DNA of 64,000 nt from IMG/VR virus record IMGVR_UViG_3300031707_002920, positions 1-64,000 of that record. The stretch is one strand, 5' to 3'. The notes under the pieces were generated by a model. The model did no database searches. It had not been told where the DNA came from and saw only the letters and a program-made list of their open reading frames with translations. Below are positions 20,729 to 55,657 of this stretch, in pieces. The DNA comes from a virus. Both the position numbers and the translations under genes were made by a program. Numbering within the stretch: position 1 is the stretch's first letter; the number at the start of each line of letters is the position of its first letter.

Positions 20729-21025
20729 GTTGTAAGAAATGCGGTTGGCTCTGAAAATTATAGGCCGCCGCTAAACCAAAACAAGAAGTAGCCGTCATGT
20801 TGCGTGAACAATGTAAATTATGCTCCTATTTTCGTAAAGCAAATCCAACCTCGCATTTTCCTTACGAGCAGGCTGATTGGTGTTATAATTCTAATTGGAA
20901 CCCCACAGGGTATTATTCTAAAAATGATGGGGCTACAGTAAAATGTACATCATTTATTCCTAATACTTTGGTACAAAAAGTTGCGGCGGCTGGAAAGTAA
21001 GGAAGCCAACCGCACATCTTACAAC
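20729..21025 (+). mobile_element. Orphan integron-type cassette containing ORF 20797-21000
   Basis: 5' GTTGTAAGAAATGCGGTTGGCTCTGAAAATTATA and 3' GGAAAGTAAGGAAGCCAACCGCACATCTTACAAC match the cassette at 46564-47072. Confidence 0.8.
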
Positions 21026-37668: not shown

Positions 37669-38793
37669 ATGAGAATTGGCTATTCAGCATGGGGATTTAT
37701 AGGTGATGGACTCGTAGACTCTCCAGACGGTGGACGTTTAACAAGAGCATTGCTTATTGAACACTTACTTAAAGAAAACTACGACATTATGTGGTTACAA
37801 GAAAATCGTGATGTCGATTATCATAGCATGCCATTATTTAGGCTCTCAGTAAGTAAATCTTACAAAGATGAACAAAGACAAACGCTTTGTAAAATAAAAT
37901 ATGATAATGGTTTTCCACAAATTGATGTATTATTCCTTGAATGGCGATGGAAAATACCGGGCAGGAATTGTGACGTTTCTATTGAAGATGCTAAATACAC
38001 TCCAGATTATGATAGACAGACGCAATTACTATTACATTACATCAACATGTCAACTAAAATTATCATTTGGGATAAGGATGAAAAACTCACTTTTAATGAC
38101 GAACATTGGCTTGATCATCATAAGAAGCATCAATTTCAAGTCACAATATTGTCGCCTGCGATTTATCCTCCTAAGATAATCTTCGAACGAAAAACGCTAT
38201 TGTTTCCGTGTCAGTTAAGTAAGATAAAGGGCACTAAAATAAACAAACGATACGAATATCTTATTGGTTATGTTGGTTCTCAGTATGAGCGCGATGACCA
38301 GATCTATAAATATATCAATCCTTTTTCTTTTCAATGGGCTCAATTAACTAAACAACTGCAAGTGATATTTGTCGGCAATTGGTTAAAATATGATGATCAG
38401 GCTAAGAGAAATTTAGTCAATTTTCCGCATATTAAATTTGAAGATAGAATCTTACCAAAAGATATGGGAACTATTTATAGTAAATGTTTGGCTTCAGTCT
38501 TATTATGCAAACAAAACTATGCACGGCATTGTCACATAACACAGAGGATTTATGAACTTGCAATGAACGGCGTGATTGCTATCGGCCTTAAAGAGCAAAT
38601 AGACATTGATAAATTTATTAATAAGTCACTCATAATTTCAGATGCTTATGATCTTGTACAAGTGATCGACATGCTGCGCAGGTCGTCAATTGATTTTCGA
38701 CAGCAAATATTAGATGAGCATATCGAAAGATTAGAACCATTTGATATAAACAATGTCATGAACAAGTTTAGAGAAGTACTAAGCCATGCATAG
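37669..38793 (+). CDS. GT-B-fold glycosyltransferase, candidate DNA-modifying enzyme
   Basis: IGYVG.QYERD, ITQRIYE; replication context. Confidence 0.65.
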   Translation: MRIGYSAWGFIGDGLVDSPDGGRLTRALLIEHLLKENYDIMWLQENRDVDYHSMPLFRLSVSKSYKDEQRQTLCKIKYDNGFPQIDVLFLEWRWKIPGRNCDVSIEDAKYTPDYDRQTQLLLHYINMSTKIIIWDKDEKLTFNDEHWLDHHKKHQFQVTILSPAIYPPKIIFERKTLLFPCQLSKIKGTKINKRYEYLIGYVGSQYERDDQIYKYINPFSFQWAQLTKQLQVIFVGNWLKYDDQAKRNLVNFPHIKFEDRILPKDMGTIYSKCLASVLLCKQNYARHCHITQRIYELAMNGVIAIGLKEQIDIDKFINKSLIISDAYDLVQVIDMLRRSSIDFRQQILDEHIERLEPFDINNVMNKFREVLSHA

Positions 38794-40405
38794 ATTTGAC
38801 CAAAAAAATGTGTCTGATTTCTTTCCGTATCCGACATATAGACAGTATCAATTAGAGACCATTAATAAAATTCAACAACATTTTGTTGATGGTGTTAAAG
38901 ACATTATTATAGAGATGCCTACTGGTTCTGGAAAATCGCCTGTAGCAATTGCATGTGGATTATGGTCAGAGAATTCTTATTGTTTAACTTCACAAAAAAT
39001 CTTGCAAGATCAATATATTAAAGATTTCACTGAAGATTACAGGATTTCTGTGTTGAAAGGTCGCAGCAATTATGAGTGCACATTTTTGGGTGATCCTGCA
39101 ATGTGTAACGAGTGCTATGAACCTGCCAGAAAGCAATGTTATAAAAACGGAACGTGCCTTTATCAGATTGCTAAGAAAAGAACAATTAATTCTATTATAG
39201 CGTTGATGAATTATTCATACTTTCTGAATGTGACAGATTGTGATCCTAATAAATCGTTCGGTAAGAAGAAATTGTTGATTTGTGACGAGTGTCACTCGCT
39301 TGAGGGCGAGCTTATGGGGCAGGTCGAGTTCATTTTATCAGAATTTATGTTTAAGCGATCAGGGTATCCTGTTGCTATTCCCACATATGAATCATTAGAT
39401 CAATATGAAGCGTGGATAAAAGAAAATATAGAACAAGTGCAAGCGATTTTAAAGAAAAAAAATGATGAGTTAGATAGTTTGAATAGACAGCGAGTGAGTC
39501 TTAGTCGTGAATCTTTTAATTTTAAAAAAATGTCAGGAGAGACGGCTGAACTAGTGTCGCAAGTTGAAGAAATTGATCGTCTTTATCGACGAATGAATAC
39601 GTTTTTGAATACTATAGGTTTAGTTGAATGGGTGTTTACGGTCGAAAGAACTGAAAAATTAAAGATGAAGAAAGTGATTTTTAAACCATTGACGATTAAT
39701 TTATTTGCACCCGATTGTTTATTAAATTACGGTGAACAACGACTTTACATGTCAGCTACTATTTTAGATAAAAAGAGTTTTTGTCATAGTCTTGGTATCA
39801 ATTGTGATGAAGCTGCTTTTATAAGAGTGCCATCAACGTTTCCTGCTAAAAATCGGAAGATATTTTTTACAAATTCTGGTTTTATGAACTTAGCGAATAT
39901 CGACGATACGTTACCAAATATTGTCAGAGACTTGAAAAAAGCACTGGCATATCATAAGTCTGAAAAAGCACTAGTGCATTGTCATTCATATAAGATTGCA
40001 AATTACATACAAGAAAATTGTCATGACCATCGGTTGATTTTTCATAATTCAGAGAATCGTGAAAAGATGCTTCAAAAGTTTATGCAATCGACAGATCCTA
40101 TGGTTTTAGTTTCGCCGTCTATGACTGAGGGTCTTGATCTTAAAGATGACTTAGCACGTTGGGAAATTATAGTCAAAGTACCGTATTTATATTTGGGTGA
40201 TAAACAAGTATCTAGAAGAATGGCAATTGATCCTGATTGGTACAATTGGCAAACATGCCTGACACTGGTTCAGAGTTACGGTCGCATTTTTAGATCAGAG
40301 ACTGATTGGGGAACAGTATATGTATTTGATAGTGGAGCAAGAGGATTTATACAACGTAATGTAAGTATTTTACCACAATGGTTTATCGACGCTTGTCAAT
40401 TTTAA
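38786..40405 (+). CDS. DinG/Rad3-like SF2 helicase
   Basis: PTGSGKS, LKGRSNYEC, DECH, MSAT, EGLD, QSYGRIFR. Confidence 0.9.
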   Translation: MHRFDQKNVSDFFPYPTYRQYQLETINKIQQHFVDGVKDIIIEMPTGSGKSPVAIACGLWSENSYCLTSQKILQDQYIKDFTEDYRISVLKGRSNYECTFLGDPAMCNECYEPARKQCYKNGTCLYQIAKKRTINSIIALMNYSYFLNVTDCDPNKSFGKKKLLICDECHSLEGELMGQVEFILSEFMFKRSGYPVAIPTYESLDQYEAWIKENIEQVQAILKKKNDELDSLNRQRVSLSRESFNFKKMSGETAELVSQVEEIDRLYRRMNTFLNTIGLVEWVFTVERTEKLKMKKVIFKPLTINLFAPDCLLNYGEQRLYMSATILDKKSFCHSLGINCDEAAFIRVPSTFPAKNRKIFFTNSGFMNLANIDDTLPNIVRDLKKALAYHKSEKALVHCHSYKIANYIQENCHDHRLIFHNSENREKMLQKFMQSTDPMVLVSPSMTEGLDLKDDLARWEIIVKVPYLYLGDKQVSRRMAIDPDWYNWQTCLTLVQSYGRIFRSETDWGTVYVFDSGARGFIQRNVSILPQWFIDACQF

Positions 40406-40453
40406 GTAGAGCAGCTATATCAATCTACGCAAAGCAGGTTGATTATAAAAGTT

Positions 40454-40669
40454 ATGAGAACTACAATTGAAGTAGCTCCTGATAAACGAAGAATTTGGCG
40501 ACAATGGTGTAAGAAATTTAAATTAAGTAGTGTAAAGTTATTTGATAAATTAATTGAGAAGATCGAGCAACGACAACAACAAGAGTTTTATAATTCATTG
40601 CCAAGACCTATAAAATATGTTAAGCCATTGGAAAATAAAAGAATTAGGAAATTTGTATACAAAAAATAG
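40454..40669 (+). CDS. Small basic protein, ribbon-helix-helix-like (duplicated at 41457-41672)
   Basis: MRTTIEV...IWRQWCKKFKLSSVKLFDKLIE. Confidence 0.6.
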   Translation: MRTTIEVAPDKRRIWRQWCKKFKLSSVKLFDKLIEKIEQRQQQEFYNSLPRPIKYVKPLENKRIRKFVYKK

Positions 40670-40689
40670 GTTCATATAATAACTAGTTG
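40653..40689 (+). promoter_or_regulatory. Sigma70-type promoter abutting an attI-like cassette insertion site
   Basis: TTGTAT-16 nt-TATAAT, then AACTAGTTG; the two repeat copies diverge right after this GTTG. Confidence 0.7.
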
Positions 40690-41283
40690 CACGCAATAGG
40701 CCGCGAACCATGTTGGAGGTGAATTTTGGAAACGAGAATTATTCGTAACGCCAGTTGTAAATGTAGCGATTGCATGGGACCGGAGCGGGGTATCTGCCCT
40801 CGTAAGGGTTTCCAAAATTCACGGAGCACTAAGGAGTCGCGGCCTACAGTCCGGCGAAACGCCCGTGCAACAGACAAAGTGCGCCATGTAGATGATGGCC
40901 GTGTCGTTCCAGTAGATGGGTATGGTCAGCACAGCCACCCCGATTTTTTTCACGATTGATTACGGCGCACGTTTGTCAACCGTTGTTTGCAATTGTCAAT
41001 TTCTCTTATATACTGAGGTGGCGCTATGATGACAGAACGGTGCGGAAGGTGTGCGAATCTAAGTGGGTTATGTGCTATGGTCGGCTGTGGTGGCTTCGTC
41101 GAGAAAGCGCCACTGGAAGCTGTGGAAGAAATTGCCAACAGCACACAACAAACCAATGGCGCAGGGGCTGAAGCCACATTACCGCCCAGGTGCCTCATCA
41201 CTGGTTGTTACGACGATGCAGAACCTACATCTGTGTTCTGTGCGTGGCATAATATAGGGCGGTAACGTCGCCATTGGTCAAAC

Positions 41284-41380
41284 GTTGTAAGAAATGCTGG
41301 CCGTTCTGAAATTATAGGGCGGCGGCAAAACCAAAACAAGGAGAAAACATGAAACGCATTATCGAGAAGTACGACCACCA
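41284..41380 (+). repeat. Truncated copy of the cassette beginning at 43177
   Basis: 97 bp identical to 43177-43273. Confidence 0.93.
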
Positions 41381-41692
41381 ATGGTTTATCGACGCTTGTC
41401 AATTTTAAGTAGAGCAGCTATATCAATCTACGCAAAGCAGGTTGATTATAAAAGTTATGAGAACTACAATTGAAGTAGCTCCTGATAAACGAAGAATTTG
41501 GCGACAATGGTGTAAGAAATTTAAATTAAGTAGTGTAAAGTTATTTGATAAATTAATTGAGAAGATCGAGCAACGACAACAACAAGAGTTTTATAATTCA
41601 TTGCCAAGACCTATAAAATATGTTAAGCCATTGGAAAATAAAAGAATTAGGAAATTTGTATACAAAAAATAGGTTCATATAATAACTAGTTG
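41379..41692 (+). repeat. 314-bp direct repeat, copy 2
   Basis: Identical to 40376-40689. Confidence 0.95.
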
Positions 41693-41731
41693 TCGGAAAT
41701 TCCGCGCAGGTTTTATGATTGGAGGCGGCGC

Positions 41732-41962
41732 ATGAGAGATAGTGATTTCAAACGCAAATTGTTCTGGGAGTGCATCGACAATCTGGGATCGAAGGGGCGT
41801 AGCAGCGCCGCTAAACTGGCGGAACCTGCGCTCCACATCCCACAACAGGGCCAGCACAAAATTTGCCCTCAATGTGGTGGCAATCTTGTGGAGATGTATC
41901 AGGCTGATGTTTACATTTGCAATGATTGCGGTATCAAGGTTACGGGCAAACTTCGTGCGTAG
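41732..41962 (+). CDS. Cassette ORF, Zn-ribbon protein
   Basis: GGAGG RBS; CPQCG...CNDCG. Confidence 0.6.
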   Translation: MRDSDFKRKLFWECIDNLGSKGRSSAAKLAEPALHIPQQGQHKICPQCGGNLVEMYQADVYICNDCGIKVTGKLRA

Positions 41963-42015
41963 CCCGAACCGTTGTATGCAACCGGTCACGCGACCATATT
42001 GTAAAGGGGCGACAA

Positions 42016-42339
42016 ATGACAATCATCCAGGCGTTATCAAGCATTCGCGGTGAGTTGGAGGAAGCGGAGCGCAAGTTCCCCTCGTTTCCTACAGACCCGG
42101 TACACGCCGCCGCAATAGTGGTTGAGGAAGCTGGTGAGCTACAACAGGCAGCATTGCAGTTTACGTATGAAGGCGGCGGCTGGGCTGAGTTGCACAACGA
42201 GGCTGTGCAGGTTGGCGCGATGGCGCTCCGCTTTCTTTGTCACATAGATTCGATGAAGAGTCGTCCCTCCGAGCAGGTGGAGCGCGTGCCCGGCAGCATA
42301 CAACAGGGCCAGCACGAAACGGCGGCTGACAAGGGGTAG
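42016..42339 (+). CDS. Cassette ORF, MazG-like nucleotide pyrophosphohydrolase
   Basis: HAAAIVVEEAGEL...EAVQVGAMALRF. Confidence 0.75.
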   Translation: MTIIQALSSIRGELEEAERKFPSFPTDPVHAAAIVVEEAGELQQAALQFTYEGGGWAELHNEAVQVGAMALRFLCHIDSMKSRPSEQVERVPGSIQQGQHETAADKG

Positions 42340-42451
42340 GGGATTATAGGCCGCCGCATCGTGCGAGTGGCCCGGGACGTTGTAAGAAATTCGCCCCGCT
42401 TTGAGAATATTTAGGCGAGCGCGAAAACCAAAAACAAAAAAGGAGAAACAA

Positions 42452-42787
42452 ATGCAAGCAGGACCGGTATCGATATTTCAGTCCCCGAATATTGTAAGGG
42501 ACCTTCGTGTCTTGCCCGAGTTTAAGACCGTTGCACAACAATTTCGAGATGATTTAGGGCACAAAATGGTGGAGCACAAAAAGAAAATCAAAACTGACGG
42601 TAATAAACTGTGTGGATTTATTGTGTCTCCTGAGTACAAAGCTATGTTACTTACTTTTTGCCAGGACCTTGTTCAGCTACCTACTATTATGGGTGAGTTA
42701 CCTATGCTGTACGGGATGCCCATTGAAGATGGAGAGGTCTCAAATATCGCGTTCAAATTTGAAAAAGACGCGCTCGCAGGACACTAA
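42452..42787 (+). CDS. Cassette ORF, hypothetical
   Basis: AGGAG RBS inside the cassette frame. Confidence 0.65.
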   Translation: MQAGPVSIFQSPNIVRDLRVLPEFKTVAQQFRDDLGHKMVEHKKKIKTDGNKLCGFIVSPEYKAMLLTFCQDLVQLPTIMGELPMLYGMPIEDGEVSNIAFKFEKDALAGH

Positions 42788-42800
42788 GGAGGCGGGGCGA

Positions 42801-42886
42801 ACATCTTACAACACAGCAAGGGATGCCAGAAACGCAGGACATTAAGGATTGAATTTTATTATAGGCGTTTCCAGCACCCGTTGCTG
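42801..42886 (+). repeat. attC-like site, identical to 43629-43714
   Basis: 86-bp exact repeat; CAGCAAGGGATGC...GCACCCGTTGCTG hairpin. Confidence 0.9.
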
Positions 42887-43241
42887 AACGCGTTGGTTGA
42901 AATTCCAGTCGATTTATTTTATTGAAAGGTTGCGAATTATGTTTGTTCCAATTTGGCTGCTTATCGTCTTATCGGGGTTTGGTTGCTGGGGCACACTTAT
43001 ATTCATCAATGCCATTCGCAACAGGAAATCTAAGGTGGTATCTCCTTCCGCATTCGCACAACAGGCAAAGTGTGCCATGCTTCCGTGTCTCGGCTATTTA
43101 GAATCTGAGTGTGAAAATTGTAGCAACTACAATCTGTACCGTAAACCGTAGCGGCACGGCACACATTTGCCGAACCGTTGTAAGAAATGCTGGCCGTTCT
43201 GAAATTATAGGGCGGCGGCAAAACCAAAACAAGGAGAAAAC

Positions 43242-43592
43242 ATGAAACGCATTATCGAGAAGTACGACCACCAGTTTATCAAAGATGGTAAGCGCATTTT
43301 CTGTACCTATGTTACTGTGCCATTTTCAGAGTTGCCTGAAGACTGTGATTTTTCTGGATTGGATGTGTCTATTATCAACGTGCTGTATGATGACTGTCAC
43401 ATCGCTGTTACGGGGTTTGATAGCAATCAAAACGGTATCTCAGTAGAGATACCCCCTACGCTGAAATTTCTATTTTATAAGGCAAGGGAGCAAGGTCAAG
43501 CGGTGTGTGCTGAATTGCTGACGAAGCATAACTTTGAAACAAACTGCATCAAGTTCAAAAAGGATATAGGGTACAGTAACACGGTAGCATAA
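43242..43592 (+). CDS. Cassette ORF, hypothetical
   Basis: AGGAG RBS. Confidence 0.7.
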   Translation: MKRIIEKYDHQFIKDGKRIFCTYVTVPFSELPEDCDFSGLDVSIINVLYDDCHIAVTGFDSNQNGISVEIPPTLKFLFYKAREQGQAVCAELLTKHNFETNCIKFKKDIGYSNTVA

Positions 43593-45503
43593 GAGAGCCG
43601 CCGCCAAGACATTAGGGATACGGCCAGCACATCTTACAACACAGCAAGGGATGCCAGAAACGCAGGACATTAAGGATTGAATTTTATTATAGGCGTTTCC
43701 AGCACCCGTTGCTGGGCGTTGGTGGAAATAAACTTTTCTTTGGAGGTTATATGTTTGCCGAATTTGACAAGGTGATTAGGTGCCTTGCGTTGGAGTTACC
43801 CGAGTCCGTACATGCCGATGTTGTGGCGAAGTACGGCAAACTGAAAGCTGAGGTGGAAAAGTTTACATCCACCAACAGCGCTATGGATGCAATAAACGCT
43901 TACATTAAGGAATATGATAGCAAGCTGATTACTACTCCCGATGAAAAATGTGCATTGGCGGTGTGTGAATTTACGGATAAGTATGCTAATATTTTTAGGC
44001 GTTTACTGCACCAGTAGCGCAGACGTTGGGTGCAATTCGCGCCCGACCATATGATAGGCGGTTTCGCTATGAAGATATGTCGAAAGTGTAGTATCGTTTA
44101 CGAGAATCGTACTTGCCCGCTGTGTAATCTGCGCAAGCACGATAATCTTGTCCACGACTTCATCGAGTCAAAGGGACGAAGTCTTGTTCGGGAGTTGGTA
44201 GCCTATTTGCAGCACCGCGAAACCGCAGCAGATAGCGGAGCGGGCGCGAACAGCACCCAACATTCGCAGCACAAAAGTTGCCCTACATTCAACCGAGATT
44301 GTCATTTCTCTGTTGTCAAGATACAGTGTACGAATGCCGGAGATTGTCCATGTTAAACGGGCAACCTTCGTGCGGTGCGGTGAACGTTGGTGTAAATTTC
44401 GGTCGCTCTAAAACACGAATTATAGGAGGCGCAAAAATGTCAGGAACGATTTATCATACGTGTTCGGTATGTGGAAGCGAAATGTATCCGAAGATTGGAG
44501 GGCGATCAAACGGCGACACCATAACAGAGTTTGTCATGGTGCCGTGTAAGATTTGCGCCTCTGAAAAAGAGGAATCCGCTCCCTCCGCATCCACCAACAG
44601 CGCTATGGTGTCATTGTGCTTAAAATGTAAATATACTTTTTCTTGTATAATGGCTGGTGAACACGTGCGAGAATCTTGTCCTACAAATGAGTTCGCACAA
44701 CGGCACCAGTAGCGCGGACGGTGGTGTAAATAAACCGCGCTTGGAGGTTATAGGTGGCCGCCGATGAAGTGCTTCGATTTATGATCCGATGGTTTGCGCG
44801 ACACGATACGCCGCCGACGGTTCGCCAGGTATGGAAAGCGGCCACGAAAGCAGCGGAGGCGCGGTTTACATCCACCAACAAAGCAAGTGCGCCATGCCCA
44901 CAGTGTGTAGATTTTGGCGCTATTCCGCCGCTTGTCAACTATTGTAAAACCTGTGGCCGTAAGCTACATGAGCACGGCGCACGTTGCTGAACCGTTGTAA
45001 GAAATGCTCACCATTTTTGAATTTATGGGTGGGCGCAAAAAGGAGACCTAATGCAGAACGTTTACGATGTTTTAAAATACAGGTTGTCTTTTATCTATGT
45101 TGTGTTAGCCTACACCTATTTGGTGTTAGCCTACATTTTTTGTATCATCATTAGTCCTTTGGGATTATTTTTAATGCTTTTTGAAAAACCTAAAATATGT
45201 TGTGTATGTAATAAGCGTATTGGTAAAAAAGAAGCTTGGACAAGTTATATTCATAGACCTGCTCATTATTCGTGTGTAGAAAACAAATGGTCATACTGGT
45301 ATCAATTTGGCCCTATGGATAATCCTGATTATTGGCGTTATTTAGGTAGGAGTGCGCCCACAGAACAATAAGGAAATGGTGAGCACATCTTACAACAAAC
45401 AAATGGTGCCGAAGACTAAATCGTGAGTACACGACTTCACCATTTGTTGGACGTTGTACGCAAGTTTGGCGGTTCTGAATTTGATAGGCCGCCGAGGAGA
45501 AAT

Positions 45504-45877
45504 ATGGCATACCTTCATTGTCACAAGTGCGGCTGGTCACAGGATGATTTTTGGTATTGGCGGTGGTCTGGCCTCAAACAGTTTTGGAGGTGGCGGCATA
45601 TGCCATTTGGCTATAATCCCGTTTCTCTTATTCTCGAAGATTTTGCCGAATACTGGAAGCCGCGCATGATAGGAATGGACTGTGTTTGGGCGCGTGAAAA
45701 TGGTTTTAAAAGTAGTAATATTTTTCTTGGCATATTATGCTTTGGTCAATGGGTCGTCATGCGCGGCGTGTATTTAGTCAACGGTGGTGGTTTGACGATC
45801 AGTTTAAACGGGATTATAAAAACAATAAGGCCAAATGTCCTTCGTGCAAGTCACCAGATGATTTTGATATAGACTAA
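45504..45877 (+). pseudogene. Cassette ORF with a frameshift near 45720 (Zn-finger protein)
   Basis: MAYLHCHKCGWSQDDFW...; alternative frame continues FSWHYMLW...AKCPSCKSPDDFDID*. Confidence 0.6.
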
Positions 45878-46628
45878 TCGGCGGCAGAAGAATATTGAAA
45901 CCGCCAAACCAGACGTACAACAGCCGCAGCTTGAAACGGCTTTACACTAATGATTATGTTTTTGTAGGCCGCATCAAGCGTGCGGCAAACGTTGTAGTCA
46001 ATGCCGTGCCGAGTCTTTATTGTAGGTGCGGCCATAAGGAGCAAGTATGTTTTCATGGATGCATCGTGGTAAAGTTGAACGACCTATGTCCGAATTTCAT
46101 GCCGAGTATATGGCCACACAGAGAGCAAAAGAGGAGTCGGCACGTCACAGCCTACAACAGCTAAAGGCTGAAATTGCCGCTACTATGCTTCCAGCTATTG
46201 TGGCATTAAGTAAAGGTGATATGATTACAGTCGCTAAATGTATTGACGAACTGCGGCAACTATCAGCCGTTTAGCGAACGTTGGTTGAAATTCCAGTCAT
46301 GCTTTTTATGTTTGGAGGCGAACATGCTGTACTTTATCATAGGATGTCTAATAATCGGGTTGTTTATCTCGTTTTCAATAGGTTGGTGGTGTGGCGAACG
46401 GCATGTTCGCAGAAACACTATGGTAGGCATTCCTTCCACATCAACCAACAGCAAAAGTACGCCATGTAAATGCACCTCAGTGCCGTTGGTAATATCTGAG
46501 AAGTGTAGATGTCGTATCTGTGGTCGAGTGTGGGTTCAGTAACACGGCGTACATTTTGCGGACGTTGTAAGAAATGCGGTTGGCTCTGAAAATTATAAGC
46601 CGCCGCTAAAATCAAAACAAGGTATCAC

Positions 46629-47024
46629 ATGAAATTATCATCCTGCTCTCAAAAATTATATGGTAAACCTTTTTCAGATCTCACAGACTCTGAAAAAATA
46701 ACAGTTAGAAAAGAAACTGCAAAATTAACTGTAGAAGAAGAACTCGAAAAACAAACCAAACGCGAACAAGAGTGGCATGACAGAATCGAGGATCCTGGAC
46801 AATGGTTCTGCCCCCGATGCGGTCATAAACTAGAACCGGTAAGCAAGGACAATGAAGACTGGGGAGATTTTTGTAGCGGATACCATGAGGAGCACGGCAC
46901 TTTCTGGTTTCTATGCTCTAACAAAGACTGCACTTACAGTGAGGCTCCTCTTGTCGTCCATCATCCTGTTTATGGATGGCAATGCAGATCAGGAGATAGT
47001 TGGGCTATTGGTTACGTCAAATAA
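46629..47024 (+). CDS. Cassette ORF, Zn-ribbon protein
   Basis: FCPRCG...CSNKDC. Confidence 0.65.
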   Translation: MKLSSCSQKLYGKPFSDLTDSEKITVRKETAKLTVEEELEKQTKREQEWHDRIEDPGQWFCPRCGHKLEPVSKDNEDWGDFCSGYHEEHGTFWFLCSNKDCTYSEAPLVVHHPVYGWQCRSGDSWAIGYVK

Positions 47025-47066
47025 AGGCAGCGGCGGCGGGAAAGTAAGGAAGCCAACCGCACATCT

Positions 47067-47127
47067 TACAACAAATGCATGGCGGGGAGTACCCGCAAAT
47101 TTGGAGTACCAAACTTCGCCATGCATC
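47067..47127 (+). repeat. attC-like site, near-identical to 48389-48449
   Basis: ATGCATGGCG...CGCCATGCAT hairpin, one substitution between copies. Confidence 0.88.
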
Positions 47128-47169
47128 GGACGTTGTAGTCAATTGTCGAGCGCAAAGAAAGGAAATTAT

Positions 47170-47400
47170 ATGCCCGCCGAAGAATTGCTTCCGTGTCGTA
47201 AATGTGGGGCTCCTGCTGCGCCGATAGCTCCACCGAAAGATGGCTGGTCGTGTTTAATACACTGTTCAAAGTTTTGCGGTTATCATGAGCATGAAGGAAC
47301 GGTAGAGAAAACGGTTCTTGCGTGGAATCGGCGGGCGGACACTAAGGAGTGCGCTCGCCAACAGCCTACAACAACCGTATGCCAAAATGTCGACGAGTAA
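47170..47400 (+). CDS. Cassette ORF, Lar-family (restriction alleviation)-like Zn finger
   Basis: ELLPCRKCG...IHCSKFCG...AWNRRA. Confidence 0.65.
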   Translation: MPAEELLPCRKCGAPAAPIAPPKDGWSCLIHCSKFCGYHEHEGTVEKTVLAWNRRADTKECARQQPTTTVCQNVDE

Positions 47401-50400
47401 CCGACGTGACTATGAACGCTCAGATTTTCAGTTCCCTGAGAAAACACGGAAAAGATATGTTGGATGTCTCCTGCTTAGCTAAAGAATTAAAAAAGGGTCT
47501 TATGGGGACGATGTGGGGTGCTCGCGTGTGGGTTCATAGAGATGCTACAGAAATTAGGTGTTACGGAGAAAATAGTGTTGAGTTTGAAAAGCAATTCCCT
47601 TTTCTCAAGGAGTCTAAAAGAGTTCTCAAAATTAAAGACTAAAAGCCACAAACGAAGAGAGAGGAGGGATGTGATGAGCCGGTCGTACTTTACAACACAG
47701 AAAATTTCACGTAAGATATTTCCTAATAAAGTGGGAGATAGCATCCTACTTAAAAATGGAGAAAAACTAACTATTGGATCAGATAGAAAGGATATATCTG
47801 GATCATTCTATCTGACGGATGGGATAGCAAGTGTGTGGTTGTATTTCGATAAGGGCCTTCTCTCTATGTACGATATAAACAATACATTTGCATGGAATGG
47901 TACTGGAGAGCCATTGCTGAAAAAAATCCGATCATACGTGCGCAAACCAAAAGCAAAAGAGGCACGTCCTGTGCCTAAGAGCCGCCACAAGGACACTATG
48001 GTAGCGCGAAAAATAGCAGCCAACAGCCACAGCCCAAAACAGTGGAAGTTGACTAAGGACTAATTTTATTATAGTCCGCTGCATCGGGCGTGCGGCGGAC
48101 GTTGTACAAAATTTAACCGCGTCTTGGATTTATAGCCGGGGCGCAAAACAGGAGAAAAACATGAAAGACACAGAGTTGAGAATTATCAGCGACGGTACTG
48201 TTGCTGGCACACAGGTGGTGGATTCTAAAGGTAACAGGGTCAAATTAGTACAGAAAATAAAATGGGAGTTATCCCTATCGTCTGGTATATCTAAAGTTAC
48301 ATTGGAAATTGCCAAAACACCTATTGATGTCATCGCCAAAAAAGCAAGAGCGCCCCGGAGGAACATTAAGGAACGCGGTTAAACTTCGTACAACAAATGC
48401 ATGGCGGGGAGTACCCCCAAATTTGGAGTACCAAACTTCGCCATGCATCAAACGTTGTGCGAAATAACCGGCGAACCATATTGGAGGCGCGAATGATTCA
48501 CAAACACGATCTGCGTACCGCTATCAGCGATCTCGGGCAGGCTCTGGAGCATGTCGAGCACTATAGTGGTAGGCCGGAAGTTTTTTGCCTTAAGCAGCTT
48601 TTGGTCAATCCACTTTCGTACGCGCAGAACAATGGGAGTCGCCGGTTACATCGCACAACAGCGAAAGTGCGCAATGTCAACACAATTTTCAAGAGTCTAT
48701 TTGTATTCGCTGTGGTAAAAAATTGTGATGCCACAGCGCACGTTTCGCGAGACGTTGGTTGCAATGGTCTTCTTAAATTTATTATAGGCGGCGCAAATGG
48801 CAATTCCATTTTTCAAATGTAGTAAACATGGTGTTGTGAAGTTCAGGGTTATTCACGAGTGCGAGGTATGCGCCGCTGAAAACCGCTGTACTCAGCCCAC
48901 AGACAACCAACATACGCAGCTTGCAATTGCAGCTCTTCGCGGCGCGTTGTCTCGGTTGCCCGTCAATCTTGGCATGGTAGATCAGATATTGGTTGCCTTC
49001 GAGGAAGAGCTGCAACAGCAAGCGAGTGCGTAAAACGTTGGCCGAAACTCCACGGCCAAAACGAATATAGATAGGCGGCATTATGCGGCCAAAGCGCCGC
49101 ACTGCGCATAATCGCGGGCGTTGTACGCAATGGGCTTCTTAAATTTATTGGAGGTGGTTGCTTATGTCAAAATGCAATAGTTGCGGTCGTGAGCCTCTTG
49201 AATATGTAACAAGGTGTGTGCGTTGCGGAGCGGCGCAACCACTGGAAAGCAGCGGTACTCAGCCCACAGACGTACAACAGCTAAAGGCCGAAATCGCCAT
49301 GTGTGCGGCGTTGCTTGAGCCTTTATTCGGGGCGACTGAGGAACAAAGTAAGGTCATTACCGATGTCACGCAAAGACTGTGGCGACTATCAGCCGTTTAG
49401 CAAACGTTGTATGCCATTTACATTTTCTCGGAGGTTATAGGCACATGGCTATATGCGGTACGAATCAATGCGTAGAGTGCGAGCTGTATATACACTGCAT
49501 ACGACATGTGCGCGACGTAGTTCCGCCATGTGCAAAAAATGTAAACCAGCTAAAAGCCGAAATTCGCGCATTGCTAAACGACAATTGTGAGTTTTACGAA
49601 AGTAACGCTTCGTTAAGTAACATTAGCGCGTTTTTGTTCAAATTGCGCGAACTATCGGCTGTTTAGCAAATCGTTGTGCGCCATTAGAACCAGTCTTTAT
49701 ATCGAGAGGTAAAACATGTTTGCTTTGCAGTTAGTAGCACTCGTGCTGATTCTGTCTGCCGCTGCCCTCATAGTTACGATGCTTTTATTGGGTGTCGTAA
49801 GTTCGTTTTCGTCAAGTAAATGGTTCTGTACATCAATGGGTTGGCATCGTCAGCCAGACTCCATAGGCTTTGATGGCTGCTCGATGCTTGGTTGCTGTCC
49901 TCGGTGCGGCAAACATGTTTTACTGGATAGTCAAGGTAACTGGTTCTAACAGCGCACAACAAATAGACAAGGAGATTTATATGGCGCGCAAGATTGTAAA
50001 GTTCGATGTTCAGCAGGTGCCGAATGATTATTGGAGTCAGTGTCACTACATATCGTGGTGTCTGTGCGACGACGGTACTATGTGGGAATTGCAAGATAAT
50101 GAAAGCGCGTGGCGTCAGTTGCCTGTACCGGGGTGCGCGCCGGACACTGTGGAAGGCGCAAATTTACATCCACCAAGTGTGCCAGTTTGCCCTTCATGGT
50201 GTAAGGATACGTCAAGTGGTACGTGGGGGTGTTTGAAGGGCAAACCAGCACACATTTTGAAAGGTGGCGATCATGTCAACAGACATTAACGTAGGTTTGG
50301 GAGAGTTTAAACTATTAGAGAGATTTGTGGTAGCTATGGAGCGAATCGCCACCAAACTGGAGGAAATCGCTCCTTCCACACCAACTAACAAAAGTGTGCC

Positions 50401-51275
50401 ATTATCTAAAACTAGTTATAAATTTCCAGAAACTGGAGTCTTTTTGGATATCCCTGTCAAAGCTCATTGGGTTCATAAAAATGTTAGTGAGATGAAAGAG
50501 GTCCGTATTTTTGGTAACATTTTAAAACTGGCTGAAACTTATGACATAATGATAACGCGGTCAGATTCTGAAAAATTGGTAATTTATATCGATGAGCCAG
50601 GAAAAAAATTCCGAATAAGAGGTTAAAAGGATATTTTATGATCTGGATAGAGGTAAACAATTTGGAATTATTGTCAATGTGGAAACAATGTGTACTTTTT
50701 AGAATTGGAGGGTGCAATGAAAGTTTTGCCGTTGTGTGATACGTCTGGACACGATATGGAGATTGTTGCTGAAACAGACTTTGAGGCGGAGTGGCTTAAA
50801 TGTCATTTCAAGGTTTGGCGCGGTGTAGATGGATTTGTTGATGATACAACAGTAGGTGGTGTTCGCCTCAAAGTCAAGAGCGCATGGTGGGATTGCACTA
50901 GAGCACTGGCGGAAGCGCACACACAGCCTACAACAGCGCCATGCGGTACGGGGCAGAAGCCCCAAATTGCCGAAGCGTCAACTTCCGCATAGCGCAAACT
51001 TGGAAGAAAAATGAAACTTACATCGTTTGCGTAACTCAGGCCGGTTCGTGATGCAGCGATGCGTGTCGTTGAGGCTCAAACAGCGCCTCAATGCCGCTAT
51101 TGTTTAAGCTTCATTGATGATTCTCATAAATTTATAGTTTTAAACTGTATATAGTAGCTAAAAATGTGTACAATATAAACTAATATCCCACTCAGGTATG
51201 TCGTATTTAAATACTCTGTTTGTGGTAGTTTTTAATGTAATCACATGAATATGAAAAACAAAACAGAAGAAGAAA

Positions 51276-52535
51276 ATGAAACTCGTACACAAATTTAACT
51301 ATAGAAAGAAAAACATTGAGCTGGATACTTTGTGTAGAGTGTCTAATGATATCTATAATCAAGCGAATTATACCATAAAACAGGAGCTAAATAAATCTGG
51401 TAAATGGATACGATATAACGAGCTAGACCAAATAATGAAAGTCACAGAGAATCTAGAGCACGAGATAAATTATAGGAAACTAAAAGCACAGGCGGCTCAG
51501 CAAACATTAAGGATGCTGGATAAAAACTGGAACTCTTATTTCAGAGCACTCAAACCGTTTAAAAAGGATCCCAATAAATTTACCGGTCAACCGAGACCTC
51601 CTAGATTTCTAAAACGTGGGAGCATAAATTTACTAGTTTATACTAATCAATGCTCCCAAATAAAGGATAATAAAATAGTATTAGAAGAAAACATATCCAT
51701 AGGAATACCCGAGGTAGATAAAGATTTTAGTAAATTTAATCAGATAAGAATTTTGCCGAGAAAAAATAGATATGAGATAGAGATAGTCTATAGCGTAGAT
51801 TGTGCCAATTTAGAACTAGATCAGAACAATTATTTATCAATAGATTTGGGAGTCAACAATTTAGCGGCTTGTATTTCTAAAGATAAATCTTTTCTTTTAG
51901 ACGGCAAACCTATTAAGTCTATAAATCAGTTTTTTAACAAAACTCTTGCAAAGAATAGATCTTTCAGAGACAAAAAAGGAGGCGGAGCATGCCGTAGAAA
52001 ATCAAACGAACTAAGTAATTACAGAGAGTTTTTTATCAGGGATCAGTTTCATAAAATGACGAGGCTTCTTGTAAATTATTGCATAGTGAAAAACATTGGT
52101 ACTATAGTTTGTGGGTATAATAAGCGATGGAAAGACTCCATCGATATTGGTAAAGTTTCGAATCAGAAGTTTACCAACATACCTCATAAACTATTTTTGA
52201 AGATGTTAAAATACAAATGTAATTTAGTAGGCATTGTGTTGATTTGTAAAGAGGAGTCATACACATCTAAGTGCGATGGACTAGCATTAGAGCCCGTAAA
52301 AAAGCACAAAGTTTACTTGGGCAAGAGGATTAAGAGAGGGCTTTTTCAGAGCTCTGTTGGAAAGCTTATCAATGCTGATATTGGTGGGTCTTTAAATACA
52401 CTTAGAAAAGTAATCGGTGATGGTTCCTTTATCAGGGATCTAATCGATAGTGTGGTTCTGTTTAACCCAGTGAAGATAAGGTTTGCGGATTTAAGCTGCA
52501 AGCAGACTCTTTCAAATTTTTTGGTTAGATGTTAA
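51276..52535 (+). CDS. tnpB: Stand-alone TnpB (IS1341-like)
   Basis: YNQANY, SIDLGVNN, IVCGYNKRWK, EESYTSK, NADIGG. Confidence 0.9.
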   Translation: MKLVHKFNYRKKNIELDTLCRVSNDIYNQANYTIKQELNKSGKWIRYNELDQIMKVTENLEHEINYRKLKAQAAQQTLRMLDKNWNSYFRALKPFKKDPNKFTGQPRPPRFLKRGSINLLVYTNQCSQIKDNKIVLEENISIGIPEVDKDFSKFNQIRILPRKNRYEIEIVYSVDCANLELDQNNYLSIDLGVNNLAACISKDKSFLLDGKPIKSINQFFNKTLAKNRSFRDKKGGGACRRKSNELSNYREFFIRDQFHKMTRLLVNYCIVKNIGTIVCGYNKRWKDSIDIGKVSNQKFTNIPHKLFLKMLKYKCNLVGIVLICKEESYTSKCDGLALEPVKKHKVYLGKRIKRGLFQSSVGKLINADIGGSLNTLRKVIGDGSFIRDLIDSVVLFNPVKIRFADLSCKQTLSNFLVRC

Positions 52536-52740
52536 AAGGTGAATACATTTTTTAACATTATTAACGAAAAGGATAACATGTCTAAAAGATATCGCAAATG
52601 TGATGATCACGATATAAAAGATTTTTCATATCTTCTACAAACTTACGGGATTCATTGGGAAAATGCTGATAAAATTCTCAAAGCAAAGACGGCGCATGAA
52701 AAAGAAAAAAATGAAGTAAATAAGTAAGAAAGATTGTGCT

Positions 52741-53709
52741 ATGCTGCGTTGTCAAGAATCTGCGAAGCTTCAGCTCAAGCAAAGTTTCAAAAAAGTCATT
52801 CTGATAGATGCAAATCATTTATTGAGCAGGACATTTCATGTACCGTCATTTCAAAATTTAAAAGCTACAATTGATGGCAATGAAGTGTTCACTGGCGCTA
52901 CGTACGGTTTCTTATGGTCGCTCAAAAAAATAGTAGATACACATAGGCAACTTAATGATGTATTAATAGTCGTCTGGGACGGTGGCGGTAAAAATTTCAG
53001 GCACGAACTTAGTGCAGACTATAAAGCTACTAGGGCTAAAAAAACACCAGAATTCTTGTTCCAAGTCGGTCTGACTAGGGACGTACTGAAAACATTAGGA
53101 ATAATGCAGTGTCAGATGCCTAATACAGAAGCTGATGACATTATCGGCGTATTGACAAAGCAAGCTAGATTGAAAGGTTATAAAGTCCTCATCATTTCGG
53201 GCGATAAGGATTTCAACCAATTAGTCAGTAACAATGTTTCAGTATTACATCCCGGTTCTGGTCAAAGTGAAGATAAATTGATGACCCCTGATGTGATTAA
53301 AGAAGAGTATGGTATTTCGCCCAATCAATTTATCGATTGGTTAACTTTACAAGGAGATGGTTCGGATAATATCGCCGGAATCGAGGGTATAGGTAAAAAG
53401 ACTGCGTCAGAATTGATTCAATGTAATGGTACGATAGAGAATATAATTAGTTCTGATATTCATTACAAGTTTAATCGGAAAGGGTTAAAAAAAGAAATAA
53501 GTGATAACTTGCAACAAAAGATAAACGCATCTAAAGATAAGCTTAAATTATCAAAACAATTAGTGACAATTAAGACGGATATAAAAGATTTAGACGTTAA
53601 TGTAGAACAAAGTAAGCCAGACTTCTCTCATTTAAGAGATTTATTTAAGACGTATAAGTTTTCTACGATCTTGCAAAAATTCAATGAATTCATAACTACG
53701 TTTTCATGA
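52741..53709 (+). CDS. 5'-3' exonuclease/flap endonuclease (PolA N-terminal family)
   Basis: LIDANH, YKATR, EADD, SGDKDFNQL, GDGSDNIAGIEGIGKKTA. Confidence 0.93.
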   Translation: MLRCQESAKLQLKQSFKKVILIDANHLLSRTFHVPSFQNLKATIDGNEVFTGATYGFLWSLKKIVDTHRQLNDVLIVVWDGGGKNFRHELSADYKATRAKKTPEFLFQVGLTRDVLKTLGIMQCQMPNTEADDIIGVLTKQARLKGYKVLIISGDKDFNQLVSNNVSVLHPGSGQSEDKLMTPDVIKEEYGISPNQFIDWLTLQGDGSDNIAGIEGIGKKTASELIQCNGTIENIISSDIHYKFNRKGLKKEISDNLQQKINASKDKLKLSKQLVTIKTDIKDLDVNVEQSKPDFSHLRDLFKTYKFSTILQKFNEFITTFS

Positions 53710-54111
53710 TACAATGTTTGATCTAATAAAGAAGAAAAATGTCAGAAATAATTTGTAAAGGATGCAATAGAAGAACAATAACATCACTATCTATAGGGCC
53801 CTTTGAAAAAGAAGCCATAGAATGTTATGTAGCTCTTGAAAATGGACAAATTGTTAAAGGATGTGGCTACGAACGTGCGGATATTTTTTATAAAGAACTT
53901 GCTGATAAATATTTGAAAGATAATGCGTAGTTAAGTGCATTCAAATATTTTTTTGCGAGAATATTATCTGCATGACATCTTTGAAGCTGTTAACACTTAC
54001 TACTACGATGCAATAAAATATGTAAAATTTATAGCGCAAGCAGTATAGAATAAAACCGTAGTATAAAAGTTGGTTGTAGTATAACTTTTAACTTAACAGC
54101 AGGAGGTTTTC

Positions 54112-54489
54112 ATGGCTAAAGAAGGGAAAGTCAAGAAACAACGTCGGTCAAAGGCTGAACAATTCCGTATGCCTGATCTCATTACGGTTGTTCAAGATGT
54201 AACCAGTCTTTCACGTCGTGAGTCGAAAGTAGCTATTCAGGCTGTGGTTTATGCTATTAAGAAAGGTTTGATAGAGAAAGGTTACGTAAAGATCCCAGGT
54301 TTTGGCAAGTTTGTCAAGATTCATAAGAAAGCTACAGAGCGCAAATCATTCGGTAAAATGACCAAGATTCCTGAAAAAGATGTTGTGAAATTCCGCCCGC
54401 TAAAGAGTCTGAAGCTGCTTGTCAACGGTGCTATTGAGCTTGAAAAGTATGTTGAAGAAGAAGAGACAGCCGGCGACGACAAAAAGTAA
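54112..54489 (+). CDS. HU-family DNA-binding protein
   Basis: VKIPGFGKF...KIPEKDVVKFRPLKSLK. Confidence 0.88.
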   Translation: MAKEGKVKKQRRSKAEQFRMPDLITVVQDVTSLSRRESKVAIQAVVYAIKKGLIEKGYVKIPGFGKFVKIHKKATERKSFGKMTKIPEKDVVKFRPLKSLKLLVNGAIELEKYVEEEETAGDDKK

Positions 54490-54520
54490 ATTGATCCTTA
54501 AAGATTAACATCGATTCACA

Positions 54521-54553
54521 AAGGCTGGTGCATTTTTGCATCAGCTTTTTTTT
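54521..54553 (+). terminator. Intrinsic terminator
   Basis: AAGGCTGGTGCA-TTTT-TGCATCAGC followed by a T run. Confidence 0.8.
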
Positions 54554-54652
54554 CGTAAAGTAGAAGACCAAAATTGTAAAGAATTTTCTTAAATTATGAA
54601 GCAGGAATCTTGAATGCTTCCAATAAGCACTTAGAAAGTAGCAGGTTTTTGA

Positions 54653-55657
54653 ATGAATGAATTTAATTGTACAATGGCAACTTCATTTGAGCACGCATAT
54701 ATTCAGGCAATTGATGCATTAATGAGACTAGGTCAGACGTCATATCCAAGAGGTTTGGAAACAAAAGAATTAATATCATATATGCTTGGATTTGAAAATT
54801 CTAGAAAACGGTTGATATTTAATCCTGAAAGAAAAATCAATTTGGCTTTTATGCTCGCAGAATGTTTATGGATTATGAACGGTCGCGAAGATGTCGACAT
54901 GATTTCATTTTATAATTCAAAAATTAGTCAATTTTCAGATAATAGTCACACTTTTCATGGTGCTTACGGACCAAGACTTCGAAGATTACCTGATAAAAAT
55001 CTAATACCTCTTGACCAATTTCGATTAGTCATTGATAAATTAAAATCTGATTCTGATAGTCGACAAGCTATTTGCAACATATTTTTAGCAGGATCAGATT
55101 ATGTTATTACAAAAGATGTACCATGCACGATAAGCTTTCAATTTTTACTTAGACGTAATAAATTGAACATGATAGCTAGCATGCGATCGAACGATGTACT
55201 TTTGGGGCTTAGCACTGACGTATATAATTTTTCGACAATTCAAGAAGTGATGGCTTCAGAGCTTGAAGTTGAACTGGGTTGGTATTATCACGTCGATGGT
55301 TCGTTACACATTTACAAAAAAGATTTTGAATGGGCGCAAAGAATATTAGCTAATAGTAGCAGAACAGTCAGCGAAATATTAGAAATGCCGCCGATGCCGA
55401 CACATTCTCTACAATATGTGAAAATGCTCGGCGAATTTGAAGAACAGTTAAGGACTCGGACTGTGTTTATGGACGATTTGCCAGAATATTGGCATAAATG
55501 GTTGTTAGTGTTTGCGTGTTATAAATATCTTAAAGAAAATAATATTGATAAAGCAGAAGATTGTAATGACCGTATTGGTAAAGATCATCCATTTTATGTT
55601 TTTATGAAGAGGAGTATTGATAGAAAACTTGCAAAACGAGCAGGTGAACATGAATGA
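54653..55657 (+). CDS. Thymidylate-synthase-family enzyme, probable dCMP hydroxymethylase
   Basis: GAYGPR, DSRQA, KDVPCT, MRSNDVLLGLSTD (Asp at the substrate-specificity position), GSLHIY. Confidence 0.8.
   Translation: MNEFNCTMATSFEHAYIQAIDALMRLGQTSYPRGLETKELISYMLGFENSRKRLIFNPERKINLAFMLAECLWIMNGREDVDMISFYNSKISQFSDNSHTFHGAYGPRLRRLPDKNLIPLDQFRLVIDKLKSDSDSRQAICNIFLAGSDYVITKDVPCTISFQFLLRRNKLNMIASMRSNDVLLGLSTDVYNFSTIQEVMASELEVELGWYYHVDGSLHIYKKDFEWAQRILANSSRTVSEILEMPPMPTHSLQYVKMLGEFEEQLRTRTVFMDDLPEYWHKWLLVFACYKYLKENNIDKAEDCNDRIGKDHPFYVFMKRSIDRKLAKRAGEHE

Follow-up and report, generated by a model that had tools for sequence, protein, structure and literature searches.

The array and its surroundings

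The window, meaning the whole stretch of 64,000 nucleotides that was analysed, is part of a jumbo-phage record (IMGVR_UViG_3300031707_002920; GC about 33 %) of a large uncultured phage. Its central feature is an integron-like array of about 25 units and about 10 kb, with a GC content of about 46 % compared with about 33 % for the record. The array opens at ...AACTA/GTTG (the slash marks the boundary) and closes with the last hairpin followed by CTTGGAAG. Gene orientation is identical in all array units. Among the cargo are DNA methyltransferases, beside other genes of the counter-defence type, and a restriction-alleviation-like protein. The features at the locus are as follows.

40454-40669: small gene just 5' of the array, with a counterpart in G001
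40687..51000, + strand: integron-like array, between a helicase gene and a TnpB gene
51276-52535: lone TnpB gene adjoining the array
55882-57269: Y1 transposase plus TnpB element (IS200/IS605; Y1 part 55882-56235), near the array and separate from it

A Pfam search assigned no family to the small gene or to its G001 counterpart; its product might have a ribbon-helix-helix fold, which is a guess. No DNA match to the array was found in cultured phage genomes. The nearest helicase among them is that of Bacillus phage G (35 % identity), and two relatives found through the helicase, L001 (82 %) and L002 (68 %), carry no array at the corresponding place.

Architecture and covariation of the frame

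The two ends of each unit are base-paired in three stems around a conserved open loop, an arrangement called here the frame. A unit starts with GTTGnnnGnAAT, and its first 21-45 nt are complementary to the stretch of the same unit that ends in aCAkCnnnCAAC. The 5' arm thus pairs with the 3' arm of its own unit rather than with the adjoining unit beyond the attC-like hairpin. The R box (about 9 bp) is the first stem, stem b (about 10 bp) the second, and the third, stem a (about 9 bp), lies past an internal loop of roughly 13x13 nt in which motif X (AAnTTATAG) faces motif Y (AnAnTAAGGA). The lengths of stems b and a and of both loops (about 13 nt each) are tightly held, and the loop sequences are conserved over many contigs. 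The GTTG and CAAC core is unvaried in 79/79 units and 21/21 aligned rows. The R box marks the end of homology between related units and is also the first stem, co-varying like b and a. The frame is not confined to the five GTTGTAAGA units, as nearly all array units have at least the R box and stem b. The original prediction had units folding end to end with pairing far beyond a 7-bp core, and the arms it quoted (units A, B, C and E) were all recovered at the places listed here.

20729..21025, + strand: lone unit, not part of the array; R', b and a shared with unit D, cargo gene different
42379..42423, + strand: 5' arm of unit A; R' GTTGTAAGA, AA, b' (42390-42399), loop X (42400-42414), a' (42415-42423)
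42769..42812, + strand: 3' arm of unit A; a (42769-42777), loop Y with ACACTAAGGA, b (42792-42801), CA, R'' TCTTACAAC
42813..42891, + strand: attC-like inner hairpin 3' of unit A; tip 42838-42864 is the joined Y-X motif, closed by GAAACGC/GCGTTTC
43177..43219, + strand: 5' arm of unit B; R', b' TGCTGGCCG, loop X ending TTATAG, a' GGCGGCGGC
43597..43640, + strand: 3' arm of unit B; a GCCGCCGCC, loop Y ACATTAGGGA, b CGGCCAGCA, R''
43718..43876, + strand: short unit of 159 nt; R box and stem b paired end to end, ribosome-binding site within X, start codon within a', 3' arm inside the reading frame
44994..45037, + strand: 5' arm of unit C (arms of 44 nt); R', b', X, a'
45353..45396, + strand: 3' arm of unit C; a, Y, b, R''
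45453..45495, + strand: 5' arm of the unit at 45453; GTTGTACGC, b' GTTTGGCGG, X ending TTGATAG, a' GCCGCCGA
45878..45921, + strand: 3' arm of the unit at 45453; a, Y-like loop, b, 3-nt spacer, R''
46564..46608, + strand: 5' arm of unit D; frame family common to the lone unit at 20729
47028..47072, + strand: 3' arm of unit D; a, AAGTAAGGA loop, b, R''
48025..48100, + strand: inner hairpin; tip 48054-48075 is the Y-X motif, closed by CAGTGGA.../TCCGCTG
48101..48144, + strand: 5' arm of unit E; GTTGTACAA, b' TTTAACCGCG, X ending TTATAG, a' CCGGGGCGC
48351..48394, + strand: 3' arm of unit E; a GCGCCCCGG, Y AACATTAAGGA, b CGCGGTTAAA, R'' TCGTACAAC

The 19.9-21.4 kb region around the lone unit is unmatched in the L001 and L002 records, and no empty site for it was found there.

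The position of the frame relative to the gene differs with unit length. Short units have their ribosome-binding site in loop X and their start codon within stem a'; their 3' arm falls in the middle of the reading frame, and the gene continues through the hairpin. In long units, stem a lies upstream of the ribosome-binding site. Both loops hold ribosome-binding-like purine runs (TAAGGAG, TTGGAGG), and a stop codon often falls within loop Y. TTATAGG is concentrated in the array rather than scattered over the phage genome, so loop X was rejected as a general phage promoter. A promoter or terminator role of loop X and the hairpins was also rejected, since no consistent site of either kind was found on the gene strand at frames or hairpins.

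Pairing is restricted to the arms of one unit. When stem b was compared in the window array, own-unit arms matched at 9.9/11 positions versus 3.0/11 for the next unit's arm across the hairpin; at R-box positions 5-9 the values were 4.4/5 and 2.1/5, respectively. When arm pairs were picked by the 8-nt R box alone, 121 distinct pairs were obtained, of which 74 had 8-9 of 9 Watson-Crick pairs in stem b (2.6 % of shuffled partners), and a stem-a helix score of at least 10 was reached by 76 % of cognate versus 4.2 % of non-cognate pairs. A covariation alignment of 21 short units from 10 contigs had 89.7 % of aligned cells paired (58.8 % in shuffles) and a covariation score of 0.692, compared with 0.148 for shuffled partners (0/500 shuffles reached the observed score) and 0.05-0.17 for slid partners; changes on both sides were seen in 14/19 pairs. 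About 80 distinct units on some 50 viral and metagenomic contigs comprise 15 R triplets, 50 b stems and 44 a stems, and the frame pairs are almost all Watson-Crick with very few intermediates. When whole units were folded as DNA, the frame was present in both the minimum-energy and the centroid structures (z of -5.1 and -3.1). The split three-stem frame is therefore real and widespread in related phage arrays, with pairing well past the 7-bp core, co-varying stems and conserved unpaired motifs as originally proposed. No description of the extended frame, i.e. pairing beyond the R box, was found in the literature.

The bottom strand is more stable in 55/62 inner hairpins (mean -17.5 vs -15.6 kcal/mol), a bias that has been published for integron attC sites (PMC5027507). 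The claim that the motif pair recurs inside attC hairpins also held, as a joined Y-X motif forms the tip of 14/62 inner hairpins, with 8 different closing stems. The folds have a spacer of 1 nt versus 4-5 nt, and a single G bulges from the 3' arm; in three folds read by hand a bulged A was present on the 5' arm too, so that bulges occur on both arms, while the canonical attC layout has them on one arm (PMC5027507). Over the inner hairpin, pairing with the neighbouring unit is limited to GTTG/CAAC, and the R box is mostly unpaired there because the R triplet is highly variable.

Module exchange and comparison with known systems

Between contigs, homology breaks at two crossover points, c/GTTG and CAAC/a, and gene modules, hairpins and frames thus assort separately. 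The flanking hairpins of homologous gene modules were unrelated on both sides in 4/4 cases. In these four unit pairs the downstream hairpin did not travel with its gene, unlike in the classical cassette; some metagenome contigs (records 19 and 23), however, share a whole R'-to-R' unit. Two units whose cargo is about 88 % identical differ completely in R triplet, b and a, on both arms at once, but have kept loop X, and one frame can carry unrelated genes. Contigs of other sediment metagenomes have only the two frame arms in common and skip the cargo, with breaks at both junctions and different unit orders.

Integron-type sites are defined as hairpins ending at R boxes, and the first bases of an integron cassette complement its own R'' because the crossover falls at G/TT. 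The phage units behave likewise: their first bases complement their own R'' and homology breaks within cGTT. Taking integron attC sites and gene cassettes as the reference (Nivina et al. 2016, PMC5027507), we also found in common an array of single-gene units that all point one way, imperfect hairpins with an inverted AAC/GTT core at their ends, unpaired spacers and bulged bases whose layout agrees in part, a bottom strand stabler than the top, and cargo with DNA methyltransferases and counter-defence-type genes. Clusters of attC sites without integrase (CALINs) have already been published in virulent phages (Qi et al. 2023, PMC9892861), and here too the phage has no integrase. Unlike in integron sites as described, however, the arms go on pairing for about 35 nt past the R box, through two further co-varying stems around a conserved 13x13 loop. 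The R triplet comes in as many as 15 kinds, with the R box mostly unpaired across the hairpin; breakpoints are seen at both R'' and R'; gene modules, hairpins and frames assort independently of one another; and the gene of short units runs through the hairpin. A search of about 185,000 species genomes with the loop-plus-R'' pattern gave 26 matches, and the motif class proved to be present as a true array in one of them only, L047. The 30-kb contig that carries it was binned with a Dehalococcoidia genome, and we judge this contig to be phage-like from its cargo and array alone.

The PeSL promoter-stem-loop cassettes of T4-type phages (Arbiol et al. 2010, PMC2839356) are likewise made up of small accessory genes from the variable regions of large phage genomes, with repeated structured flanking motifs that mediate shuffling. 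PeSLs, however, are local promoter-terminator repeats that recombine by homology, with a stem-loop terminator and then an early promoter at the boundary, whereas the junctions in the array fall precisely at a core of 4 nt, each unit has flanking stems of its own and there is no consistent promoter or terminator signal at the frames. The cholera filamentous phage, which has no recombinase of its own, forms a folded single-stranded attachment site from two distant inverted segments, and host XerCD uses it to exchange a single strand. The array resembles this system in its hairpin of phage DNA built from two distant inverted segments and in that no own recombinase was found in array phages; the cholera phage differs in having one site per phage, for chromosomal integration.

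Nature and possible role of the frame

We consider it somewhat probable that the frame is a DNA structure and forms the outer portion of a long, folded recombination site akin to the attC sites of integrons. This reading is based on pairing restricted to the own unit, the strong covariation, the R box as first stem and the bottom-strand bias of the inner hairpins. It is also favoured by the lack of a fixed place of stem a relative to translation signals, by the joint swap of R triplet, b and a on both arms of units with 88 % identical cargo, and by the metagenome contigs that share frame arms without cargo. Several results count against it: the outer frame itself showed no folding-energy difference between strands, the mismatch bias reached p = 0.05 only, no recombinase was found in the searches given below, and the downstream hairpin did not accompany its gene in the four homologous unit pairs.

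The joint swap, the nearly perfect stems with few intermediates and the carriage of unrelated genes by one frame could also be explained if the frame were a by-product without own function, its arms being kept complementary by repair or gene conversion in a hairpin, or by arm copying when a unit is made or moved. We regard this as unlikely, as stem and loop lengths are tightly held, loop sequences are conserved over many contigs and short units keep their arms even where coding is constrained, which argues for selection on the architecture. Folding in vivo would be needed all the same.

An RNA element, in which the 5' leader of a unit pairs with its 3' part in the array transcript as a clamp for translation control, message protection or processing of the RNase III type, also appears improbable to us. 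In ribosomal RNA precursors, flanking stems are processing sites for such double-strand-specific RNases. The uniform orientation would put both arms on one transcript, whole units fold with a closed frame, and in short units X and a' coincide with the ribosome-binding site and start codon; loop Y resembles a perfect ribosome-binding sequence. The purine runs in both loops and the stop codon often found in Y leave room for an RNA role. However, the stems lack the G-U tolerance by which RNA helices are recognised (5 one-sided changes in 390 cells vs 122 two-sided), and sense-strand mismatches lean towards A.C, equal to G.T on the bottom strand (A.C 22 vs G.T 10, at p = 0.05 only; position 11 is always A.C). 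In addition, the outermost stem is the DNA crossover box, cleavage at the 3' arm of short units would cut the message, and the relation of stem a to the start site is not constant. No Rfam family matched: a scan of 40000-58000 with E up to 1 gave two chance-level matches only, in a collection that has no attC family. As to expression, the public sequencing runs listed for the sequence included no RNA run. The original prediction of a protein-recognised ssDNA/RNA element is thus a fair reading as far as a structured, probably protein-recognised nucleic acid is concerned, and is narrowed here in favour of DNA.

That the arms are terminal inverted repeats, recognised in double-stranded form by the transposase of small transposon-like modules possibly akin to the IS200/IS605 elements of the record, is very improbable: GTTG...CAAC modules do act as discrete units with breakpoints at both ends, and the Y1 plus TnpB element and the lone TnpB gene lie near the array, but b and a vary freely within one array and yet stay complementary, which does not fit one sequence-reading protein, the unit ends pair with each other, unlike the separate left and right subterminal hairpins that IS200/IS605 elements have along with a Y1 transposase, and the Y1 family is absent from three complete array-bearing phages.

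Searches for an enzyme gave no candidate. Neither this record nor any of five further array-bearing records, of which three are 97-100 % complete, has a tyrosine recombinase (PF00589), and Pfam searches of three complete or near-complete array-bearing phages found no tyrosine (PF00589), serine (PF00239) or Y1 (PF01797) family. When 100 reading frames of at least 150 aa beside arrays at 45 metagenome loci were clustered and searched with Pfam, no recurrent candidate emerged. The suggested tie to cassette replication or creation was not borne out, as nothing links the frame to either and no replication or recombination enzyme was found.

If the frame is part of a DNA site, the order in a circularised unit would be a - Y - b - R'' - inner hairpin - R' - b' - X - a', with strand exchange beside the invariant GTTG/CAAC core, deep within the long hairpin and not at its base. 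Such a crossover would leave R', b', X and a' at the 5' end of the integrated unit, and a, Y, b and R'' after or inside its gene. Insertion of a unit would cut the folded site in two, and a full R box could form only between the two ends of one unit. Stems b and a (about 19 extra bp), whose role we infer to be site assembly, would stabilise this long-range pairing in single-stranded DNA, the presumed active form, either as an excised circle or within the array. In the array, the R box would join the hairpins on its upstream and downstream sides in a three-way junction, and the conserved 13x13 loop probably offers unpaired bases for protein grip. A structure-specific recombinase, either of the host or an unrecognised phage one, would act on this site.

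More tentatively, and with considerable doubt, this may be a phage-native form of gene shuffling in which base pairing, not protein, joins the unit ends in a three-way junction of single-stranded DNA, an enzyme held by the X/Y loop cuts either strand beside GTTG, and gene modules, hairpins and frames recombine independently. If so, short units with reading frames through the hairpin would yield chimeric small proteins.

How a recombinase finds and pairs cassette ends in a long array is debated. The units form a natural family with a conserved open loop, around which about 35 extra nt per side have kept their complementarity while their sequence was replaced dozens of times independently. The frame gives a direct experimental handle on long-range end pairing in excision and capture, on the strand used and on the loop binder. 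With no recognisable recombinase, large uncultured phages thus maintain arrays of small accessory genes that are of considerable size and under active reshuffling.

Setting of the array

The window covers the first 64 kb of an 85.9-kb IMG/VR virus record that was judged 43 % complete. Its genes share one strand and encode a primase, a helicase, a split DNA polymerase, a thymidylate synthase and a 5'-3' exonuclease. The polymerase consists of two consecutive reading frames (57454-59727 and 59901-63431), both matched by one PHROG polymerase family. GC content is 41-47 % across 40.7-51.0 kb against a background of ~33 %, and the array there comprises ~25 short units that each combine a single small reading frame with an attC-like hairpin. 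Such an array is in itself of a known kind, as clusters of attC sites without an integrase have been reported from virulent phages and shown to be substrates for recombination by IntI1 (PMC9892861).

Features in and around the array (window coordinates)
20729-21025: lone unit outside the array, with the same arm complementarity
38786-40405: helicase gene; the array starts downstream
40376-40690 and 41379-41692: copies of a 314-bp duplication (helicase gene end, 71-aa gene and array start)
40454-40669: pre-array gene of 71-78 aa (in the 253-kb array-bearing phage L016: 17859-18095, minus strand)
40687-51000 (+): array
51276-52535: lone TnpB gene, directly after the array
55882-57269: complete IS200/IS605-type element (Y1 transposase and TnpB), between the thymidylate synthase and polymerase genes

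The array start reads ...AACTA|GTTG, and the duplication provides two such starts, each followed by a different first unit. Just before the second copy (41284-41382) there is a fusion between the opening ~100 nt of the 43177 unit and the end of the helicase gene, with a short common GTTTATC at the joint. The pre-array gene, for which no Pfam family match was found, has its own sigma-70-like promoter and ends exactly at the array start in both the window phage and the 253-kb phage. In the latter, the same ~36-bp sequence ending TTTAACTA stands ahead of both arrays, and at the second array the gene is represented by no more than its promoter and final ~36 bp. The window array is irregular in two stretches (47372-48100 and 49960-50999), where an R'' lacks a hairpin after it and sites are separated by several genes; these may be units that have fused or decayed.

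Pairing and covariation of the unit ends

The original prediction held that complementarity between cassette ends extends far beyond the attC core, and all the examples quoted for it were found in place. With a repeat finder, the frame proved general in the array beyond these examples. Each unit starts with GTTGnnnGnAAT followed by a unit-specific stretch, and its first 21-44 nt complement a stretch ending aCAkCnnnCAAC 110-470 nt downstream. The partner always lies within the same unit. In the array, the arms of stem b match at 9.9 of 11 positions within a unit versus 3.0 of 11 with the next unit's arm across the hairpin, and the variable part of the R box (R'/R'') at 4.4 versus 2.1 of 5 positions. 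Past a ~13-nt loop on either side follows stem a, typically of 9 bp. The loops have the consensus AAnTTATAG (5' side, X) and AnAnTAAGGA (3' side, Y), with ~7-8 bits each. Whole units folded as DNA (z -5.1 and -3.1) had the frame closed in the minimum-energy and the centroid structure alike.

The inner hairpin spans CAAC to the next GTTG. It has an unpaired spacer of 1 nt versus 4-5 nt and about six pairs, after which a G bulges from the 3' arm; in three hairpins whose fold was read by hand, the helix continues for three pairs up to an A bulged from the 5' arm. The bottom strand folds more stably in 55 of the 62 inner hairpins, a bias also seen in integron attC sites and there ascribed partly to bottom-strand G:T pairs (PMC5027507). 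The joined 13x13 loop motif stands at the tip of 14/62 inner hairpins, on eight different closing stems. By its published definition an attC site ends at R'' and R' (PMC5027507), whereas the phage frame has co-varying stems outside the R boxes. Our literature search found no account of attC-type sites with such stems; classical integrons may share a modest extension beyond the R boxes.

The loop motif joined to the R'' box was used as a search pattern. Loci were thus found via one unit class, and the other units within them are independent of the pattern. Five other viral contigs were found, including two genomes, of 253 kb and 192 kb, that were rated as complete or almost complete. The one array found among ~185,000 species genomes lies on a contig of 30 kb that had been assigned to a Dehalococcoidia genome bin and was judged to be phage-like. 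More than 117 metagenome contigs matched, 80 of which were taken into the analysis. When arm pairs were picked solely by an 8-nt R-box match (121 distinct pairs), 8-9 of the 9 positions of stem b were Watson-Crick paired in 74 pairs, compared with 2.6 % of shuffled partners; every position showed all four pair types, with pairing of 90-99 %. Stem a was present in 76 % of cognate and 4.2 % of non-cognate pairs. Distinct sequences numbered 44 for stem a, 50 for stem b and 15 for the R triplet. Pair counting on 21 aligned short units (10 contigs) gave 89.7 % paired versus 58.8 % after shuffling, and the covariation score was 0.692 (reached in 0/500 shuffles) versus 0.148 after shuffling and 0.05-0.17 with slid partners.

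Crossover points and exchange of modules

Four pairs of homologous gene modules on different contigs are 85-94 % identical with both flanks unrelated, c|GTTG being the left limit of similarity and CAAC|a the right one. When contigs from four sediment metagenomes were compared with the window array, loose ends and piece boundaries clustered at both junction types.

Joints in sediment contigs (window coordinates)
43716/43717, 44023, 41973: left-type junction boundaries, examples
47073, 44262, 48397: right-type junction boundaries, examples
42431 to 42758; 45041 to 45350; 48159 to 48363: joints that retain the two frame arms only, cargo skipped
49125 joined back to 48100; 42887 joined to 41282: altered unit order

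Integron integrase cuts at an AAC triplet (PMC5027507), which belongs to R' when the bottom strand is cut and to R'' when the top strand is, so the two junction types could be the same cut on the two strands. Some sediment contigs (records 19 and 23) share a whole R'-to-R' unit with the array; the classical cassette may therefore also be a unit of exchange. Unrelated genes of 259-465 nt can share one set of R triplet, b and a, and in two units with ~88 % identical cargo the R triplet, b and a differ on both arms together while loop X is retained. Frames are modules too.

Single units of the array (40300-51300) occur in other contexts and orders in sediment metagenome runs X1-X4, which comprise the sample that is the likely source and three further sediment studies. 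Thus, the array is polymorphic in natural populations.

Proposed role of the frame

On a circular unit the arms would be contiguous and form one long hairpin, in the order a, loop, b, 2x2 mismatch, R box, spacer and inner hairpin, which exchange beside GTTG/CAAC would split. As the R triplets of neighbouring array units seldom match, a full R box is obtained only by pairing both ends of one unit, and stems b and a, with ~19 further base pairs, would offset the cost of closing a 100-1000-nt loop. The conserved 13x13 loop looks like a protein platform. The mechanism as a whole is a proposal; the frame itself is a solid observation. No recombinase of the tyrosine, serine or Y1 family was found in three complete array phages, and the array flanks at 45 metagenome loci held no recurrent enzyme candidate. 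The Y1 and TnpB element at 55882-57269 is a separate insertion sequence.

The frame likely acts at the DNA level. The first stem is the crossover box itself, and nearly all helix pairs are Watson-Crick, one-sided changes numbering 5 and two-sided ones 122. At frame position 11 the gene strand invariably has A facing C, and the other strand thus has G.T; at position 9, C.A occurs in 10 units and G.T never. Over unique frames, A.C outnumbers G.T by 22 to 10, a weak difference (p = 0.05). Action as RNA was kept alive, as both loops are purine-rich and resemble ribosome-binding sites and a stop codon often falls within loop Y. Counted for DNA, stem a contains the start codon in short units and precedes the ribosome-binding site in long units, and the 3' arm of short units lies mid reading frame, which continues through R'' and the whole hairpin.

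Cargo and read-through frames
41026-41265, 41732-41962, 43751-44017, 44437-44712, 46047-46274 (window): short-unit read-through frames, among others
47170-47400 (window); 7015-7632 and 5053-5358 of L047 (the Dehalococcoidia-binned contig); 131-1015 of L080 (another contig): noted cargo genes
2689-3498 of G004 (L043); 1541-2350 of L129 (two further contigs): 810-nt unit

The noted cargo includes a weak Lar-like restriction-alleviation match, an MT-A70 and an N6/N4 DNA methyltransferase and a DUF3850/ASCH protein, a set typical of counter-defence accessories. A TTGACT-17-TATATT promoter belongs to the 810-nt unit itself, which also has local hairpins immediately interior to stems a' and a. It contains several reading frames, and the final one looks by eye to end ribbon-helix-helix-like. 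In the case of the short units, the read-through frames end a few bases short of the following GTTG. R'' is translated in two main phases (..QQ.. or ..STNS..), and the hairpin-encoded tails are Cys-x-x-Cys zinc-ribbon-like or helical. As these frames run through R'' and the hairpin, crossovers at R'' would create chimeric small proteins.
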